Source: a virus (Monodnaviria; Loebvirae; Hofneiviricota; Faserviricetes; Tubulavirales; Inoviridae). Taken from it: DNA of 7,549 bases. This document shows, piece after piece, positions 1-7,549 of the stretch. Within the stretch, counting starts at the first letter, position 1. Each line of letters starts with the position of its first letter. The notes below the pieces were generated by a model. The model was not told where the DNA came from. It ran no database searches and worked only from the letters and a program-made list of their open reading frames with translations. The stretch covers positions 1-7,549 of the IMG/VR virus record IMGVR_UViG_2579778797_000001; one strand, 5' to 3'. Made by a program: the position numbers and the translations under genes.

Positions 1-1215
<1,215 letters not shown>

Positions 1216-1229
1216 TTACCCCCGCAAAA

Positions 1230-1589
1230 TTACTTGCCAACATTAAGCCCATTTGATTTAAATAAATCATAAACCAATCGATACACTCTATCCTTATAAA
1301 GATATATGTATGAAATAAATTGAACATGGAGGATGATATTAAAACAGTACTGAATATTTAAAGGAAGGTAACTGAATGCAACTACAATAACATCGAGTTT
1401 ATTAACATCGGAGATTTGACGAATAATAAAATTGACGGCAGATACAAGAGCATAATATGAAGTGTAGCAAAGACCAAGATAAGAAAGGAGCTTAGCCCAT
1501 GCAACAGCTTTATCACCGATAACTCCTGCAATGAAACGTAGTGATTTTAAAACAACATCAACAAAAAAAGCACCTAAAATGGCCCACAT
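1230..1589 (-). CDS. pVI-like minor coat protein (119 aa)
   Basis: Very hydrophobic ~119-aa protein sitting between pIII and pI as in Ff. C-terminal half resembles Ff pVI (ISD...LP.N...CF.IIL.V). Its ATG overlaps the pIII stop (TGATG) at 1587-1591. Confidence 0.8.
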   Translation of the reverse strand: MWAILGAFFVDVVLKSLRFIAGVIGDKAVAWAKLLSYLGLCYTSYYALVSAVNFIIRQISDVNKLDVIVVAFSYLPLNIQYCFNIILHVQFISYIYLYKDRVYRLVYDLFKSNGLNVGK

Positions 1590-2953
1590 CAGAGTTTTAC
1601 CTCACGTTCAAATAATGTACGGCGAGAAATAACAAAAACGCGTAACATGGTTATCATATAAATAGCATATTCAAGAACAGAACGAACATAATCGTCATAA
1701 GCTTTTGCAAAATGGCTTGTATCAATCTTGAAATTAATCGCGCCAATCAACGGAAGATTAAAGCTAAACTGTAAAGTAAAAGGAAGAGCAGTTCCATTAT
1801 TTGTATTTACCAGTTTGTCAATATTAACTGTAAGCCAATTGTTATTATCATGACTCTCACTTCCCTGTCCTGGCAAATAATGCGAAAGCTCCCCTAAAGG
1901 GAAATCCCCATCAGGCAAAGAAGAAGCTATATTCTGACTAATATCTTTAATACCATTGTCCAGTGAATTTAATGCATTATTCATATCAGCCTGAGAAACA
2001 GAAAAAGCATTATTTAAATCATTCACTGACACCCATATTGTTTTTAACCAGCCCAAAATACCATCAAGCCAGCCATTGTCATCGCCGGATGAGCCACCGG
2101 ATCCTGAACCTGAACTACCGCTACCGGATGAACCGCCGGAGCCCGAGCCGGAGCCACCGCTACCGGATGAACCACCGGAGCCAGAACCTGAACCACCACT
2201 GCCGGATGAGCCGCCGGAACCCGAGCCGGAGCCACCGCTACCGGATGAACCACCGGAGCCAGAACCTGAACCACCACCGGAACTGCCGCCGCCTGGGTTA
2301 CCACCACCGGAACTGCCACCACCTGAGCTACCGCCATCCTCCTTACCATCGGAGAATGCAGGATCTACAGCAACTGGTTTCCAGTCGGCAGTACAAACTG
2401 TATCATCATCGGGATTACAAATAAGAGGATTGCCGGTTGCCTCATAAATACACCCCTGCACATTAACATAACGGGTCCCGTCATCACCTTTATAAACATC
2501 AGAAAAAGTCATACCATCAAGAACCGGACGAGAAAGACAAATCTCGTCAGTTGGCGGCTTATTATATTCAGGTGTCAAATCCCCCTCACCACCCTGAAAA
2601 GCAAGGGTGCAGGCTGTCCACTTTTGCTTGTCTGAATCCCAGACTTTATATGCTGACCACCGGGCACGGACAAAAGACCCGACAGTCGAAGGTGCATTAA
2701 CAGGCGTTGAAAGTGGCACACCACAATAATGAATTATTCCGGAACATGCGTCATAATTGCCCGAACCACAGAAAAGATGACCGGCCGCCCTGGCTAATTT
2801 AATCGACGTCCCCGCGTCCGAATAATCTGTCCTGCAGGATGAATGGCCTGCACACTGAACAAGTGCATCCGGATTTTCTTTCTCTTCAGCGAAAGAAAAC
2901 GAGGAAAAGAACAAAAACAGAAGCGGAATAATAAAGTGAATCAAAAAAAACAC
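1589..2953 (-). CDS. pIII-like adsorption/minor coat protein (454 aa): signal peptide, Cys-rich N-terminal domains, Gly/Ser linker, C-terminal anchor domain
   Basis: Signal-like N-terminus (FFLIHFIIPLLFLFFSSFSFA). Motif RYVNVQGCIYEATGNPLICNPDDDTVCTADWKPV matches the Ff g3p N1 core (RYANYEGCLWNATGVVVCTGDETQCYGTWVPI, from memory). Gly/Ser linker at aa 207-290 and C-terminal hydrophobic anchor (YAIYMITMLRVFVISRR). Start is GTG at 2951-2953 with AGGAG directly upstream (spacing very short); exact start uncertain. Confidence 0.9.
   Translation of the reverse strand: MFFLIHFIIPLLFLFFSSFSFAEEKENPDALVQCAGHSSCRTDYSDAGTSIKLARAAGHLFCGSGNYDACSGIIHYCGVPLSTPVNAPSTVGSFVRARWSAYKVWDSDKQKWTACTLAFQGGEGDLTPEYNKPPTDEICLSRPVLDGMTFSDVYKGDDGTRYVNVQGCIYEATGNPLICNPDDDTVCTADWKPVAVDPAFSDGKEDGGSSGGGSSGGGNPGGGSSGGGSGSGSGGSSGSGGSGSGSGGSSGSGGSGSGSGGSSGSGGSGSGSGGSSGSGSSGSGSGGSSGDDNGWLDGILGWLKTIWVSVNDLNNAFSVSQADMNNALNSLDNGIKDISQNIASSLPDGDFPLGELSHYLPGQGSESHDNNNWLTVNIDKLVNTNNGTALPFTLQFSFNLPLIGAINFKIDTSHFAKAYDDYVRSVLEYAIYMITMLRVFVISRRTLFEREVKL
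2084..2335. repeat. In-frame imperfect tandem repeats encoding the pIII Gly/Ser linker (about 5 copies of a 39-bp unit, then 15-bp units)
   Basis: Minus-strand translation GGSSGSGGSGSGS repeated. The antisense frame reads PDEPPEPEPEPPL about 4-5 times, showing the 39-bp period directly. A near-identical block recurs after 78 bp (gagccggagccaccgctaccggatgaaccaccggagccagaacctgaacc). Confidence 0.85.
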
Positions 2954-2964
2954 TCCTGGTATGA

Positions 2965-2989
2965 TTAAAAAAGCGCCCCGGAGGGCGCT
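2965..2989 (-). terminator. Rho-independent terminator downstream of the pVIII-like gene
   Basis: On the minus strand a 7-bp GC stem (AGCGCCC / GGGCGCT, plus 2972-2978 and 2983-2989) with a 4-nt loop is followed by a run of six U (plus-strand A-run 2967-2972). Position matches the strong terminator after gene VIII in Ff. Confidence 0.8.
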
Positions 2990-3004
2990 GTCATTAAATA
3001 ACTA

Positions 3005-3265
<261 letters not shown>

Positions 3266-3271
3266 TTAAAA

Positions 3272-3442
3272 TTAATTAACAGCATCACTGAACATCCGGC
3301 AGACCAGAGTGAAAATAACACCAAGACCAAAGCCAAGAAGCCAGCAGACAATCCAGACATAAAGAACGGCCCAGTAAAGCTCCCCGTCCTGTACGCCAGA
3401 ATTCAGTGCGGATAAAACACCGCTGAAATCAAATTCAGTCAT
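3272..3442 (-). CDS. Small hydrophobic protein (56 aa from ATG at 3442, or 67 aa from GTG at 3475); possible pVII/pIX-type minor coat protein
   Basis: One strong TM segment (LYWAVLYVWIVCWLLGFGLGVIFTLV), located between the gV-position gene and pVIII as gVII/gIX are in Ff. No clear Shine-Dalgarno before either start; overlaps the upstream small ORF by 8 nt. Confidence 0.5.
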   Translation of the reverse strand: MTEFDFSGVLSALNSGVQDGELYWAVLYVWIVCWLLGFGLGVIFTLVCRMFSDAVN

Positions 3443-3575
3443 AATAACGCTGAACAGTAATGCTTTGTGAGTCACAGGCGCGAATCAGTTTTATTCCGAT
3501 GCCAAAACCTGAAGAAAATAAAATCATTGCAGGCGCAGCAAATAAAACAAAGTTCAGAAAATCAGCGTCAGACAT
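3435..3575 (-). CDS. Small hydrophobic protein (46 aa from ATG at 3575); possible minor coat protein
   Basis: ATG at 3573-3575 lies 4 nt after the stop of the 141-aa ORF, with AAGG upstream. Single TM segment (FLNFVLFAAPAMILFSSGFGIGI). The track start at 3629 is TTG and overlaps the upstream gene, so the shorter form is preferred. Confidence 0.45.
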   Translation of the reverse strand: MSDADFLNFVLFAAPAMILFSSGFGIGIKLIRACDSQSITVQRYYD

Positions 3576-3579
3576 ATCA

Positions 3580-4005
3580 TCAGCCTTTTTCTTTACCTGC
3601 GGGCAGTGCACCCAGCGGCTGACCGTCAAAACGTTTCATGGAGCCGGAAATAAAACGATACCAGACACCATGACGTTCTGAGCCTGTCGACCATGAGTTA
3701 ACATCCACCGTGAGATAAACAGGTTTGCCCTGCAAATCAGGACATGAATTAAAAAATTTAAAATCCTCCTCAGTACAGGAAAATCGCTCATGCTCCTCAC
3801 GGCGGACTTTTAATTTTCGGTCCTCATACGGATAGGCAATAACAATGGCATATTTGGGTTTAGCCTCAGGGTTATAATGAGAACCCGTGGGTTTTAACTC
3901 CTCATCATTTATGACAGTGGCGTGAATAAAATATCCCGCCATTGTCATGCCTGAGGTAAAACCCTCAGGGGAAGGAAACGGAAAACTGTCGTAAATTTGA
4001 TTCAT
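3580..4005 (-). CDS. Hypothetical protein (141 aa) in the position of the ssDNA-binding/RstB-type gene
   Basis: ATG at 4003-4005 preceded by GAGGAG at about 9 nt; starts 30 nt after the Rep stop. Function is inferred from position only; no motif recognised. Confidence 0.7.
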   Translation of the reverse strand: MNQIYDSFPFPSPEGFTSGMTMAGYFIHATVINDEELKPTGSHYNPEAKPKYAIVIAYPYEDRKLKVRREEHERFSCTEEDFKFFNSCPDLQGKPVYLTVDVNSWSTGSERHGVWYRFISGSMKRFDGQPLGALPAGKEKG

Positions 4006-4035
4006 AAAGCAGACTCCTCAATGTTAAAAATTCAG

Positions 4036-6277
<2,242 letters not shown>

Positions 6278-6410
6278 GACCTCATGTCCTCATGATGACA
6301 AACAAAAAAGAACATACTCAAAAAACATCATGAACACAAGATGTATTAACAACATTTGCTCAAGTGCTCTAGAGTACATGATGGCTAAATACAAAAAAGG
6401 GGGCTAAATA
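6278..6410. promoter_or_regulatory. Divergent intergenic control region between the Rep operon and the RHH gene, with short repeats (candidate operators and/or origin)
   Basis: AT-rich 133 bp. CATGATG at 6291-6297 and 6377-6383 and inverted (CATCATG) at 6326-6332. Tandem CCTCATG at 6280-6286 and 6288-6294. Palindrome CTCTAGAG at about 6367-6374. No convincing sigma70 hexamers could be assigned by eye. Confidence 0.4.
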
Positions 6411-6611
6411 ATGGCTGAAAAAAGAAAGAGTTATAACGTGCCAAACGAGAAGTATCTAAAGCTAGAAAGATTAGCTATTGATGCAAGTCAAAAGATAGGA
6501 AGGAGCATAAAATGGACCGAAGTACTGTCTTACATGATAGATCACTACGCAAAAGACGCAGCAATAGATATGGTAAGTCAGGAAGAACTTAAGAAAAAAA
6601 AGGCAATGTGA
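6411..6611 (+). CDS. Small ribbon-helix-helix (CopG/Arc-like) putative transcriptional regulator (66 aa), divergent from the Rep operon
   Basis: ATG at 6411 preceded by AAGGGGG. N-terminal basic beta-strand-like segment (KRKSYNVP) followed by two predicted helices (EKYLKLERLAI; KWTEVLSYMIDHYAK), typical of RHH repressors. Position is analogous to rstR in CTXphi. Confidence 0.6.
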   Translation: MAEKRKSYNVPNEKYLKLERLAIDASQKIGRSIKWTEVLSYMIDHYAKDAAIDMVSQEELKKKKAM

Positions 6612-6674
6612 TCCCTTTCCCAACGTCAAACAAACAGGCCAGGAAAGATCAAAGGAAAAGTTAAACAAGGAAAT

Positions 6675-6830
6675 ATGCAGATAACCAGTGACTTAATCCT
6701 TGACCTGCTGATAAAGCATTTCGTTGTTGGCAGCATCACAGGCATGACAATATTCAGCCTGATAACGCTTGTCCCACCGTTGGTGATGACCATACACAAA
6801 AAACTAAGTAAGGACACTGAAATCCTTTAA
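6675..6830 (+). CDS. Small membrane peptide (51 aa), not in the ORF track; co-oriented with and downstream of the RHH gene
   Basis: ATG at 6675 with AAGGA just upstream. Translation MQITSDLILDLLIKHFVVGSITGMTIFSLITLVPPLVMTIHKKLSKDTEIL has one TM helix followed by a basic tail. Stop at 6828-6830 is 30 nt before the terminator at 6860-6899. Confidence 0.35.
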   Translation: MQITSDLILDLLIKHFVVGSITGMTIFSLITLVPPLVMTIHKKLSKDTEIL

Positions 6831-6859
6831 GGTTCAGTGCGCACAATGACGTTATGTAT

Positions 6860-6899
6860 AAAAAGGCCGCTGCGGTGGAGAGTATCGCAGCGGCCTTTT
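6860..6899. terminator. Bidirectional rho-independent terminator at the prophage edge
   Basis: Perfect 10-bp stem GGCCGCTGCG / CGCAGCGGCC (6865-6874 and 6886-6895) with an 11-nt loop, flanked by AAAAA (6860-6864) and TTTT (6896-6899), giving a U-run on both strands. Confidence 0.75.
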
Positions 6900-6929
6900 C
6901 AACATAACGCGTGTCACATTATGCGCACC
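6897..6929. other. dif-like XerC/XerD recombination site; prophage-host junction
   Basis: Minus strand reads GGTGCGCATAA TGT GACACGCG TTATGTTGAAA. The first 14 nt equal E. coli dif (GGTGCGCATAATGTATATTATGTTAAAT, from memory), then the sequence diverges. A XerD-arm-like TTATGTTGAAA (9/11) lies 11 bp from the XerC arm instead of 6 bp. Confidence 0.7.
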
Positions 6930-7005
6930 AATATAAACCAAGGAAGAATCCAGTCGTTGGCGGTCATGATTGTCATGCTCATTAACAATGACCAAACCCC
7001 ATATC

Positions 7006-7209
7006 TCACTTACTACCGTATTCTCGGCTTAACCGTCCATGCAACCTCAACACATTGCTTTCAACTGCCGTCACCACGTTCTCCGGAAAATCTGTCGGTA
7101 ATGAAGTCTTCACGTTATCCAGTGCTGCTGGAATCATTCTGGCAAAGTCACTCAGGATTTCATGCATCTGCACTTCCGGGAATCTCAGCACCTTTGCTGT
7201 CGCCAAAAA
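7006..7209 (-). pseudogene. hipA: 3' fragment of hipA (HipA toxin kinase C-terminal ~67 codons); gene truncated at its 5' side
   Basis: Translation FLATAKVLRFPEVQMHEILSDFARMIPAALDNVKTSLPTDFPENVVTAVESNVLRLHGRLSREYGSK matches my memory of the E. coli HipA C-terminus. The frame is closed by a TGA immediately upstream (7210-7212), so no full-length hipA is possible. HipB operators lie 25 bp away. Confidence 0.6.
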
Positions 7210-7234
7210 TCATGTCATACGTCCACAGCAAGTT

Positions 7235-7347
7235 TATCCGCTTAAGGGGATATTATAAGTTTTATCCTTTAGTGAGGATAAGTCAATCTGGAAACACATC
7301 TTATCCGCTCTACGGGATAAACGCTGCGATATCCGCGATCGCGGATA
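7235..7347 (-). promoter_or_regulatory. hipBA promoter-operator region: four HipB operator palindromes TATCC-N8-GGATA
   Basis: Exact TATCC-N8-GGATA at 7235-7252, 7263-7280, 7302-7319 and 7330-7347 (the last an 18-bp perfect palindrome TATCCGCGATCGCGGATA). Centre spacings are 28, 39 and 28 bp. This matches the published HipB operator consensus and four-operator organisation. Confidence 0.75.
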
Positions 7348-7399
7348 AAAAGGAGGATTTAAATAAGGCGTTGATGCGCCGTTTGAAGTCGGCAATATT

Positions 7400-7428
7400 A
7401 AGCCGCATGCCATCTCGACATGCGGCTT
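7400..7428. other. Inverted repeat / hairpin just downstream of the autotransporter-like gene (possible weak terminator)
   Basis: AAGCCGCATG (7400-7409) pairs with CATGCGGCTT (7419-7428) around a 9-nt loop. Flanks are A/T-rich but there is no clean U-run on either strand. Confidence 0.35.
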
Positions 7429-7435
7429 ATACGGT

Positions 7436-7549
7436 TTACCAGCTATATTTCACTCCCAGCATGCCCTGAGTATCGCTATAGCCTTTATCACCTAGTTGCA
7501 CACCGACATTCCCCCACAGGCTAAGGTTGTTAGTGACATTTCCCGACAT
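7436..7549 (-). CDS. 3' end (last 37 codons) of an outer-membrane autotransporter-like gene continuing beyond the window (yneO/ydeU-like position upstream of hipB)
   Basis: Minus-strand frame open to the window edge; translation ...GNVGVQLGDKGYSDTQGMLGVKYSW then TAA at 7436-7438. Alternating hydrophobic residues and a terminal aromatic (YSW) are typical of the last beta-strand of autotransporter barrels. In E. coli K-12 an autotransporter pseudogene lies directly upstream of hipB (memory). Confidence 0.5.
   Translation of the reverse strand: MSGNVTNNLSLWGNVGVQLGDKGYSDTQGMLGVKYSW

Follow-up and report, generated by a model that had tools for sequence, protein, structure and literature searches.

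A hybrid dif junction and a folded attP(+)-type hairpin in an Escherichia coli inovirus prophage point to CTXphi-type integration

The site at positions 6897–6929 of the analysed DNA is very probably the junction, itself non-functional, of an IMEX (integrative mobile element exploiting Xer) of the CTXphi type with the dif site of E. coli. The analysed DNA, hereafter the window, is the whole stretch of 7,549 nt that makes up positions 1–7,549 of the IMG/VR record IMGVR_UViG_2579778797_000001 (Inoviridae); the site is read on its minus strand. The element sits at chromosomal dif, and the breakpoint between host and phage DNA falls inside the dif sequence. Alone, the 33-bp duplex site is not the phage attachment site, which is a folded single-stranded attP(+) made up of this half and a partner at 6836–6862.

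The inovirus prophage body occupies positions 1–6915 on the minus strand, as delimited with Pfam matches and the PGAP annotation of relatives. Pfam matches in the window are confined to Zot, in the 403-aa Zot/pI protein (1–1212), Phage_Coat_A, in pIII with its Gly/Ser-rich linker (1589–2953), and Phage_GPA, in a GPA/RstA-type Rep of 666 aa (4036–6036). The minus strand also encodes a pVI-like protein (1230–1589), assigned from the PGAP annotation of relatives, a pVIII-like protein from a small ORF of major-coat size (3005–3265), further small ORFs (3272–3629) and an ORF of the size expected of a ssDNA-binding protein (3580–4005). A variable regulatory region (6042–6661) contains a 66-aa ORF on the plus strand (6411–6611) and, on the minus strand, one of 82 aa. 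Identity of the window Rep to CTXphi RstA and to the Reps of Vibrio phages fs2 and VFJ is about 30%. A megablast comparison of the window prophage with the phage collection gave no match, the only homologues being these distant Reps at about 30% identity, and a Rep-based scan of GTDB genome contigs gave no confirmed relative; relatives were gathered by a DNA-pattern scan in its place.

The complete phage unit of 8.3–8.7 kb was read in two relatives, those of strains 100416 (NZ_CM128593.1) and TD225-C4 (NZ_CP035860.1), since the secretin-side 1.4–1.8 kb of the unit, up to the next attP, lie beyond the window edge. The phage of strain 100416 is 99% identical to the window over positions 1–6041 and is present as a tandem dimer with a unit of 8,739 bp; TD225-C4 carries a trimer with a unit of 8,330 bp. 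The full unit comprises Zot, pVI-like, pIII and pVIII genes, small ORFs, the RstA/GPA-type Rep, small regulators and a secretin, and a GspD-type secretin and a short ORF are all that it adds to the genes of the window. The initial annotation had remarked on the absence of an integrase gene, and this extends to the full 8.3–8.7 kb unit, in which no integrase or recombinase is annotated (Pfam on the window; annotated units of 100416 and TD225-C4).

Two parts of the prophage body differ among relatives. The phage of strain 100416, elsewhere 99% identical, has no homologous counterpart of the regulatory region at 6042–6661, which is shared with a single genome of 5,426, that of TD225-C4, at 97.6% identity. 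This stretch, which separates the start of Rep from attP, has the look of a regulatory or immunity cassette that has been exchanged, and invites comparison with the rstR variants of CTXphi. In the pIII gene, the Gly/Ser-rich linker is internally repeated at 2085–2280, with self-matches offset by 78 nt; the protein has 454 aa in the window and 439–451 aa in relatives.

Read on the minus strand, the junction from 6929 to 6897 is GGTGCGCATAA TGTGACACGCG TTATGTTGAAA. It begins with the host-derived XerC-binding arm GGTGCGCATAA (6919–6929), the same as in the empty dif of the prophage-free E. coli EH10-18-47. The next three bases, TGT (6916–6918), are bases 1–3 of the central region and are common to dif and attP when attB, attP and the two junctions are set side by side. 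They are followed by GACACGCG (6908–6915), the phage-specific rest of the 11-nt central region as delimited by the fold described below, where dif has ATA, and by the phage XerD-like arm TTATGTTGAAA (6897–6907), which agrees with the dif arm TTATGTTAAAT at 9 of 11 positions. Neither GACACGCG nor TTATGTTGAAA is host sequence, and homology to the host begins at window position 6916 in a megablast comparison with 5,426 complete E. coli genomes. The identity of the first 14 bases of the site with the sequence of EH10-18-47 assigns these bases to the host dif. In the initial annotation, this segment had been described as a XerC arm and three central bases of E. coli dif, followed by a switch to non-dif sequence and a XerD-like arm at a spacing of 11 bp; each of these points is borne out.

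The reciprocal products are found in the relatives. The empty dif of EH10-18-47 (L075), in the same flank, reads ttccttggtttatatt GGTGCGCATAA TGTATA TTATGTTAAAT. In both 100416 and TD225-C4, the hipA-side junction is as in the window, with host flank followed by GGTGCGCATAA and TGTGACACGCG; the internal phage–phage junction, an intact attP, has phage flank (acccaccacaac..) followed by AGTGCGCATAA TGTGACACGCG TTATGTTGAAA; and the far-end junction leads from phage flank through AGTGCGCATAA TGTATA TTATGTTAAAT into host flank. The far end is a regenerated 28-bp dif, and its only change from the host site is at position 1 of the XerC arm, where G is the host allele and A the phage allele carried by intact attP copies as AGTGCGCATAA. 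This end was read in the two relatives, the window's own far end being outside the window, and the regenerated dif is present in two independent genomes, one with a dimer (L002) and one with a trimer (L076). The comparison of empty dif, hipA-side junction, intact attP and far end places the crossover inside the shared 13-bp GTGCGCATAATGT (6919–6928 plus TGT). At dif, XerC cleavage falls between the XerC arm and TGT, and GTGCGCATAATGT spans this position. The two findings that would, according to the initial annotation, have contradicted it, a prophage end devoid of dif-like sequence and an integrase encoded elsewhere in the element, were looked for in the closest relatives, and neither was found; its scheme of XerCD-mediated integration is supported.

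The shortness of the motif is all that could be said for a chance or degenerate dif-like sequence, or for integration of the phage by other means (homologous recombination or transposition, for instance), and the probability of such an origin is close to nil. Chance would account for at most 0.01 occurrences: a single copy of the 14-mer GGTGCGCATAATGT is present in the window, with 0.01 expected at no more than one mismatch (200 shuffles). The breakpoint of host homology is exact, the reciprocal junction is present in two genomes, and junctions of the same type occur in many species; the four-way att comparison refutes this explanation.

Two observations concern individual arrays. At the host-side junction of L010 (position 1401) and L040 (position 6965; IMGVR_UViG_2617270961), the E. 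coli flank runs into AGTGCGCATAA; position 1 of the arm is the phage-type A, where the host-type G stands in the window, in 100416 and in TD225-C4. This A is not what a simple XerC exchange at the border of arm and central region would be expected to leave; it could stem from polymorphism of the host dif, such as one regenerated by an earlier integration, or from gene conversion. In the TD225-C4 trimer, the Zot gene of the hipA-proximal copy is split into two ORFs (L076, 7763–8934) and the other two copies are intact, which suggests decay of the oldest copy.

A second dif-like site, inverted with respect to the first, is present on the plus strand at 6836–6862 and reads AGTGCGCACAA TGACG TTATGTATAAA. 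It consists of a XerC-like arm AGTGCGCACAA (6836–6846), a 5-nt central region TGACG (6847–6851) and a XerD-like arm TTATGTATAAA (6852–6862). A search of the window with the pattern GTGCGCAYAATG-N(3-12)-TTATGT returned exactly two sites, 6836–6862 and 6897–6929, with 0 expected by chance. Between them lies a G+C-rich stem extension with a loop (6864–6896), in which 6864–6874 pair perfectly with 6886–6896 over 11 bp around an 11-nt loop (6875–6885). The initial annotation was right in recognising a genuine hybrid dif at 6897–6929, but as a description of the att site it was incomplete, the inverted partner having been overlooked.

The minus strand of 6825–6940 is predicted to fold into one continuous hairpin with a ΔG of −37.7 kcal/mol; shuffled versions reach −13.7 ± 2.4 kcal/mol (z = −10.1), and 0 of 200 fold as well. 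In the stem, the two XerC arms are paired with one another, including one G·T pair, and so are the two XerD arms. The TG of the long central region is paired with the CA of the short one, six nucleotides (TGACAC, 6910–6915) are bulged out, and the last three nucleotides of the long central region (GCG, 6908–6910) are paired with the CGT of the partner. The segment at 6836–6862 is accordingly modelled as the bottom strand of the folded attP(+), and the stem-loop at 6864–6896 is the distal part of the same hairpin. The whole region left at the prophage end, 6836–6929, forms its hairpin in the phage (+) strand, which is the window minus strand and, judged by its likeness to CTXphi, corresponds to a folded single-stranded attP(+) of the CTXphi type.

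A scan for GTGCGCATAATGT-N6-10-TTATGTT yielded 14 genome loci and 42 viral contigs. The genome hosts include Yersinia pestis, Erwinia, Enterobacter, Kluyvera, Lelliottia, Phytobacter, Rosenbergiella and Pseudomonas. The same hairpin was obtained for 38 of 41 folded att-site sequences, among them that of YpfPhi of Y. pestis NCTC5923; a truncated copy (L069) was left out of the folded set. The three that deviate comprise a sequence with a mutated arm (L032), one with the short side paired in a shifted register (L067) and L027, an unrelated pattern match in Paralcaligenes that has no hairpin and was rejected as a relative. Two further loci, on contigs assigned to organisms outside the enterobacteria, look like contamination or misbinning: in L026, a contig of a Candidatus Nanosynbacter MAG, a YpfPhi-type junction adjoins the dif flank of E. 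coli, and the att site of L031 (Actinomadura monticuli contig44) is the same as that of IMG/VR contig L045 over the ~117-nt hairpin region examined.

In the alignment of 22 hairpins from enterobacteria, paired cells make up 96%, as against 26–56% when the partners are slid by 1–3 columns. Compensatory changes occur at three pairs, one of which is the XerD-side central pair (G-C to A-T); as the hairpin is nearly invariant in this set, with 24 of 36 pairs never varying, covariation is modest. The G+C stem is kept in all 22 aligned relatives and the loop varies; variation is greatest in the bulged central segment, on either side of which the paired flanks do not vary. In every one of the viral loci (46/46), the long, XerC-cleavable site is found on the major coding strand, which is presumed here to be the packaged (+) strand. 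Common descent links the loci of these sets, and the counts are therefore not independent.

These data also bear on integration of double-stranded DNA of the VGJphi type, the scheme implicit in the initial annotation, in which the single 33-bp site would be used and the partner and stem-loop would serve only as a transcription terminator. A XerC exchange on duplex DNA would leave the same junction and the same regenerated dif, and T-runs follow the stem-loop on both strands; such an integration is nonetheless very unlikely. VGJ-type attP sites are single sites of 28–29 bp, and a CTXphi duplex with a 12-bp spacer is inactive (PMC4246890). The XerC-like and XerD-like arms of the partner pair with the first site well past the G+C stem, and this arm pairing persists in four lineages with the same architecture and unrelated stem-loop sequences. 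The compensatory change at the XerD-side central pair and the constant orientation of the long site on the coding strand also argue against it. A simple terminator scan of 6300–7300 called no terminator; the stem-loop at 6864–6896, the 'terminator' of the initial annotation, failed the scan owing to its 11-nt loop and may or may not have such a role.

With high confidence, the junctions and the hairpin are attributed to CTX-type integration, in which a folded (+) ssDNA would undergo a single XerC strand exchange and replication would complete the process, leaving an inert site with an 11-bp spacer and a working dif. The two inverted dif-like sites of the packaged (+) strand (the window minus strand), with central regions of 11 and 5 nt, would fold into a hairpin of ~94 nt, in the stem of which the bulged central region would be flanked by duplexes of the XerC and the XerD arms. 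Host XerC and XerD would bind the hairpin and chromosomal dif, and XerC would swap one pair of strands at the border of arm and TGT; since TGT alone is common to the two central regions, XerD would be unable to complete the reaction. Replication would turn the resulting pseudo-Holliday junction into an integrated prophage. On the hipA side, the host XerC arm would be followed by the central region, the XerD arm and the inverted partner of the phage, as seen at the site of the window; at the other end, the phage XerC arm followed by host TGTATA and the host XerD arm would make up a working dif. New phage would arise from rolling-circle replication across the tandem copies. The single-stranded substrate, catalysis by XerC only, resolution by replication and irreversibility are put forward by analogy with CTXphi: a junction duplex with an 11-bp spacer and no hairpin would not be a Xer substrate, and integration would for this reason be effectively irreversible.

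The folded attP(+) of Vibrio cholerae CTXphi was reportedly described by Val et al. in 2005. It consists of inverted attP1 (12-bp central region) and attP2 (5–7 bp) folded in the (+) strand; integration involves XerC catalysis only and is irreversible, and the duplex site with the 12-bp central region is no Xer substrate (PMC4246890). The suggestion made in the initial annotation, that the 11-bp central region may render the integrated site inert, is in line with this published behaviour (PMC4246890). CTXphi and the window phage are both integrase-less inoviruses located at dif, with two inverted dif-like sites that fold, in the window phage by prediction, in the (+) strand. The long central region has 12 bp in CTXphi and 11 in the window and the short one 5–7 bp and 5, respectively, and homology of the central region with dif is in both cases restricted to the XerC side. 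Both phages regenerate a functional dif at one end, leave an inert or, in the window, apparently inert hybrid site at the other, and form tandem arrays. The geometry is not identical, since the two sites are only 33 nt apart in the window (the perfect 11-bp G+C stem and 11-nt loop) compared with ~90 nt in CTXphi. The hosts and their dif sequences also differ, and the window carries no toxin cargo.

XerD-first exchange of the TLCphi type, or full two-strand XerCD recombination, would use the same host enzymes and the same target and give end products alike in sequence. It is nevertheless extremely improbable: the central region is identical to dif on the XerC side only (TGT, then GACACGCG against ATA), no candidate Xer activation factor is found among the annotated genes, and the XerD-like arm is well conserved (9/11), whereas that of TLCphi is degenerate (PMC4246890).

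The other Xer-dependent classes can be compared feature by feature. VGJphi- and TLCphi-type IMEXs resemble the window phage in relying on host XerCD and dif and in lacking an integrase. They integrate reversibly through a single double-stranded attP of 28–29 bp, in contrast to the two inverted sites and the 11-bp spacer of the window. In the VGJphi type, by definition, attP is one duplex site of ~29 bp whose central region is short, and attL and attR are both Xer-competent; the window phage, with two inverted sites and a junction with an 11-bp central region, falls outside it. The TLCphi type is defined by a degenerate XerD arm, a central region nearly the same as dif, and XerD-first exchange with a phage factor. 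The window phage has a good XerD-like arm (9/11) and a central region that departs from dif after TGT, and does not belong to this type either.

The attachment module is the same as that of YpfPhi (Y. pestis) and CUS-1 (E. coli O18:K1:H7), which reads GGTGCGCATAA TGT(A/G)CGACTCG TTATGTTGAAA AGGCCGCTGCG, loop, CGCAGCGGCCTCTTTAGCATAA CGTCA TTGTGCGAACC; this hairpin and that of the window are 86% identical over 93 nt. The YpfPhi/CUS-1 lineage is found in the same E. coli dif flank, forms tandem arrays, regenerates dif and follows the same junction logic as the window phage. YpfPhi and CUS-1phi are listed in the CTXphi class (PMC4246890), and YpfPhi is described as having an inverted pair of XerC/XerD sites and as reconstituting dif (PMC4266046); the class placement and the YpfPhi site pair are thus already in reviews (PMC4246890, PMC4266046, PMC3442271). 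The backbones are unrelated: Rep is a II/X-family protein of 351 aa in the YpfPhi lineage and a GPA/RstA-type protein of 666 aa in the window phage, Zot has 341 and 403 aa, respectively, and the YpfPhi lineage also encodes a DUF2523 protein. The secretin alone is detectably similar (42% amino-acid identity); no other window-phage protein gave a tblastn match to the YpfPhi lineage at E ≤ 0.01, and no other similar DNA was found. YpfPhi and CUS-1 have in common a backbone that is 99% identical over about 7.1 kb and a II/X-family Rep, and the window phage lacks this backbone. With only the hairpin and the secretin in common with YpfPhi and no megablast match in the phage collection, the window phage is a separate inovirus lineage using an attachment module of the YpfPhi/CUS-1 type.

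One replicon, L018 (NZ_CP128883.1, E. coli TUM14759), belongs to the YpfPhi/CUS-1 lineage, as its 99.5% identity to the Y. pestis NCTC5923 prophage (L024) indicates. It is a circular molecule of 9,565 bp annotated as an 'untypable plasmid', with an intact attP hairpin at 261–351, and is most likely the phage replicative form.

UPphi phages, IKe/I2-2-like inoviruses of Enterobacterales, are integrated at dif as tandem repeats, the junctions of which match only about the first 15 bases of dif; their genes II and V are more than 85% identical to those of YpfPhi, the rest being like IKe/I2-2 (PMC7307601). The match of ~15 bases fits a XerC arm plus TGT. UPphi, compared here by its published description, has a Rep of a different family from that of the window phage.

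For CTXphi, knowledge of the mechanism reportedly dates from 2005, and YpfPhi/CUS-1 have been proposed to use it too; for this reason the finding mainly confirms that the raw sequence was read correctly. What is new is an E. coli inovirus lineage with an RstA-like Rep and no close match in the phage collection, and the occurrence of one conserved attP hairpin in phages with unrelated backbones. About 100 of 5,426 complete E. coli genomes carry the lineage of the window phage; the hosts listed are for the most part isolates from humans, in several cases from stool. Since the prophage is located at dif and regenerates dif with a one-base change, it offers a ready natural system for CTX-type ssDNA integration in E. 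coli, the organism in which Xer biochemistry is best developed.

A broader reading, rather unlikely on present evidence, is that the ~93-nt attP hairpin is a portable module with several functions that otherwise unrelated inoviruses of enterobacteria exchange among themselves, and that copies on plasmids are past integrations. Its carriers would be the RstA-Rep lineage, YpfPhi/CUS-1 and the further att lineages recovered here. The hairpin might then also terminate transcription in both directions or carry a signal for packaging or for the minus-strand origin, and such extra roles would account for its conservation (86% at the nucleotide level) far above that of any gene. Truncated copies on hundreds of E. 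coli plasmids of the IncF/ColV type would, on the same supposition, record integration into plasmid-borne sites.

The plasmid copies are truncated att hairpins of the YpfPhi/CUS-1 type on large E. coli plasmids, found in L019 at 6001–6069 (NZ_CP047878.1, 15645–15713) and in ~480 other places. They comprise the short site, the G+C stem-loop and half of the XerD arm, are 84% identical to the window, and lie between an ORF of the STM4504 family and an IS200C fragment, near a MacB/TolC efflux operon. An origin of these ~70-nt matches as IS200 ends was considered and rejected; because the XerC-like arm, TGACG and the XerD-like arm of a YpfPhi-type site are kept, they are regarded as truncated att hairpins beside an IS200C fragment. 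They may be a relic of an inovirus on plasmids.

The host flank of the window (6930–7549, minus strand) contains a dif-proximal spacer, a remnant of the hipA 3′ end (7006–7206), the hipB operator repeats (about 7235–7350) and the 3′ end of an autotransporter gene of the ECSE_1600 family. The hipBA locus is deleted at 7209–7216, where ~205 bp of the hipA 3′ end are joined directly to the region of the hipB start and operator; relative to strain 100416, the deletion removes ~1.38 kb. Other truncations at this locus are present in many E. coli.
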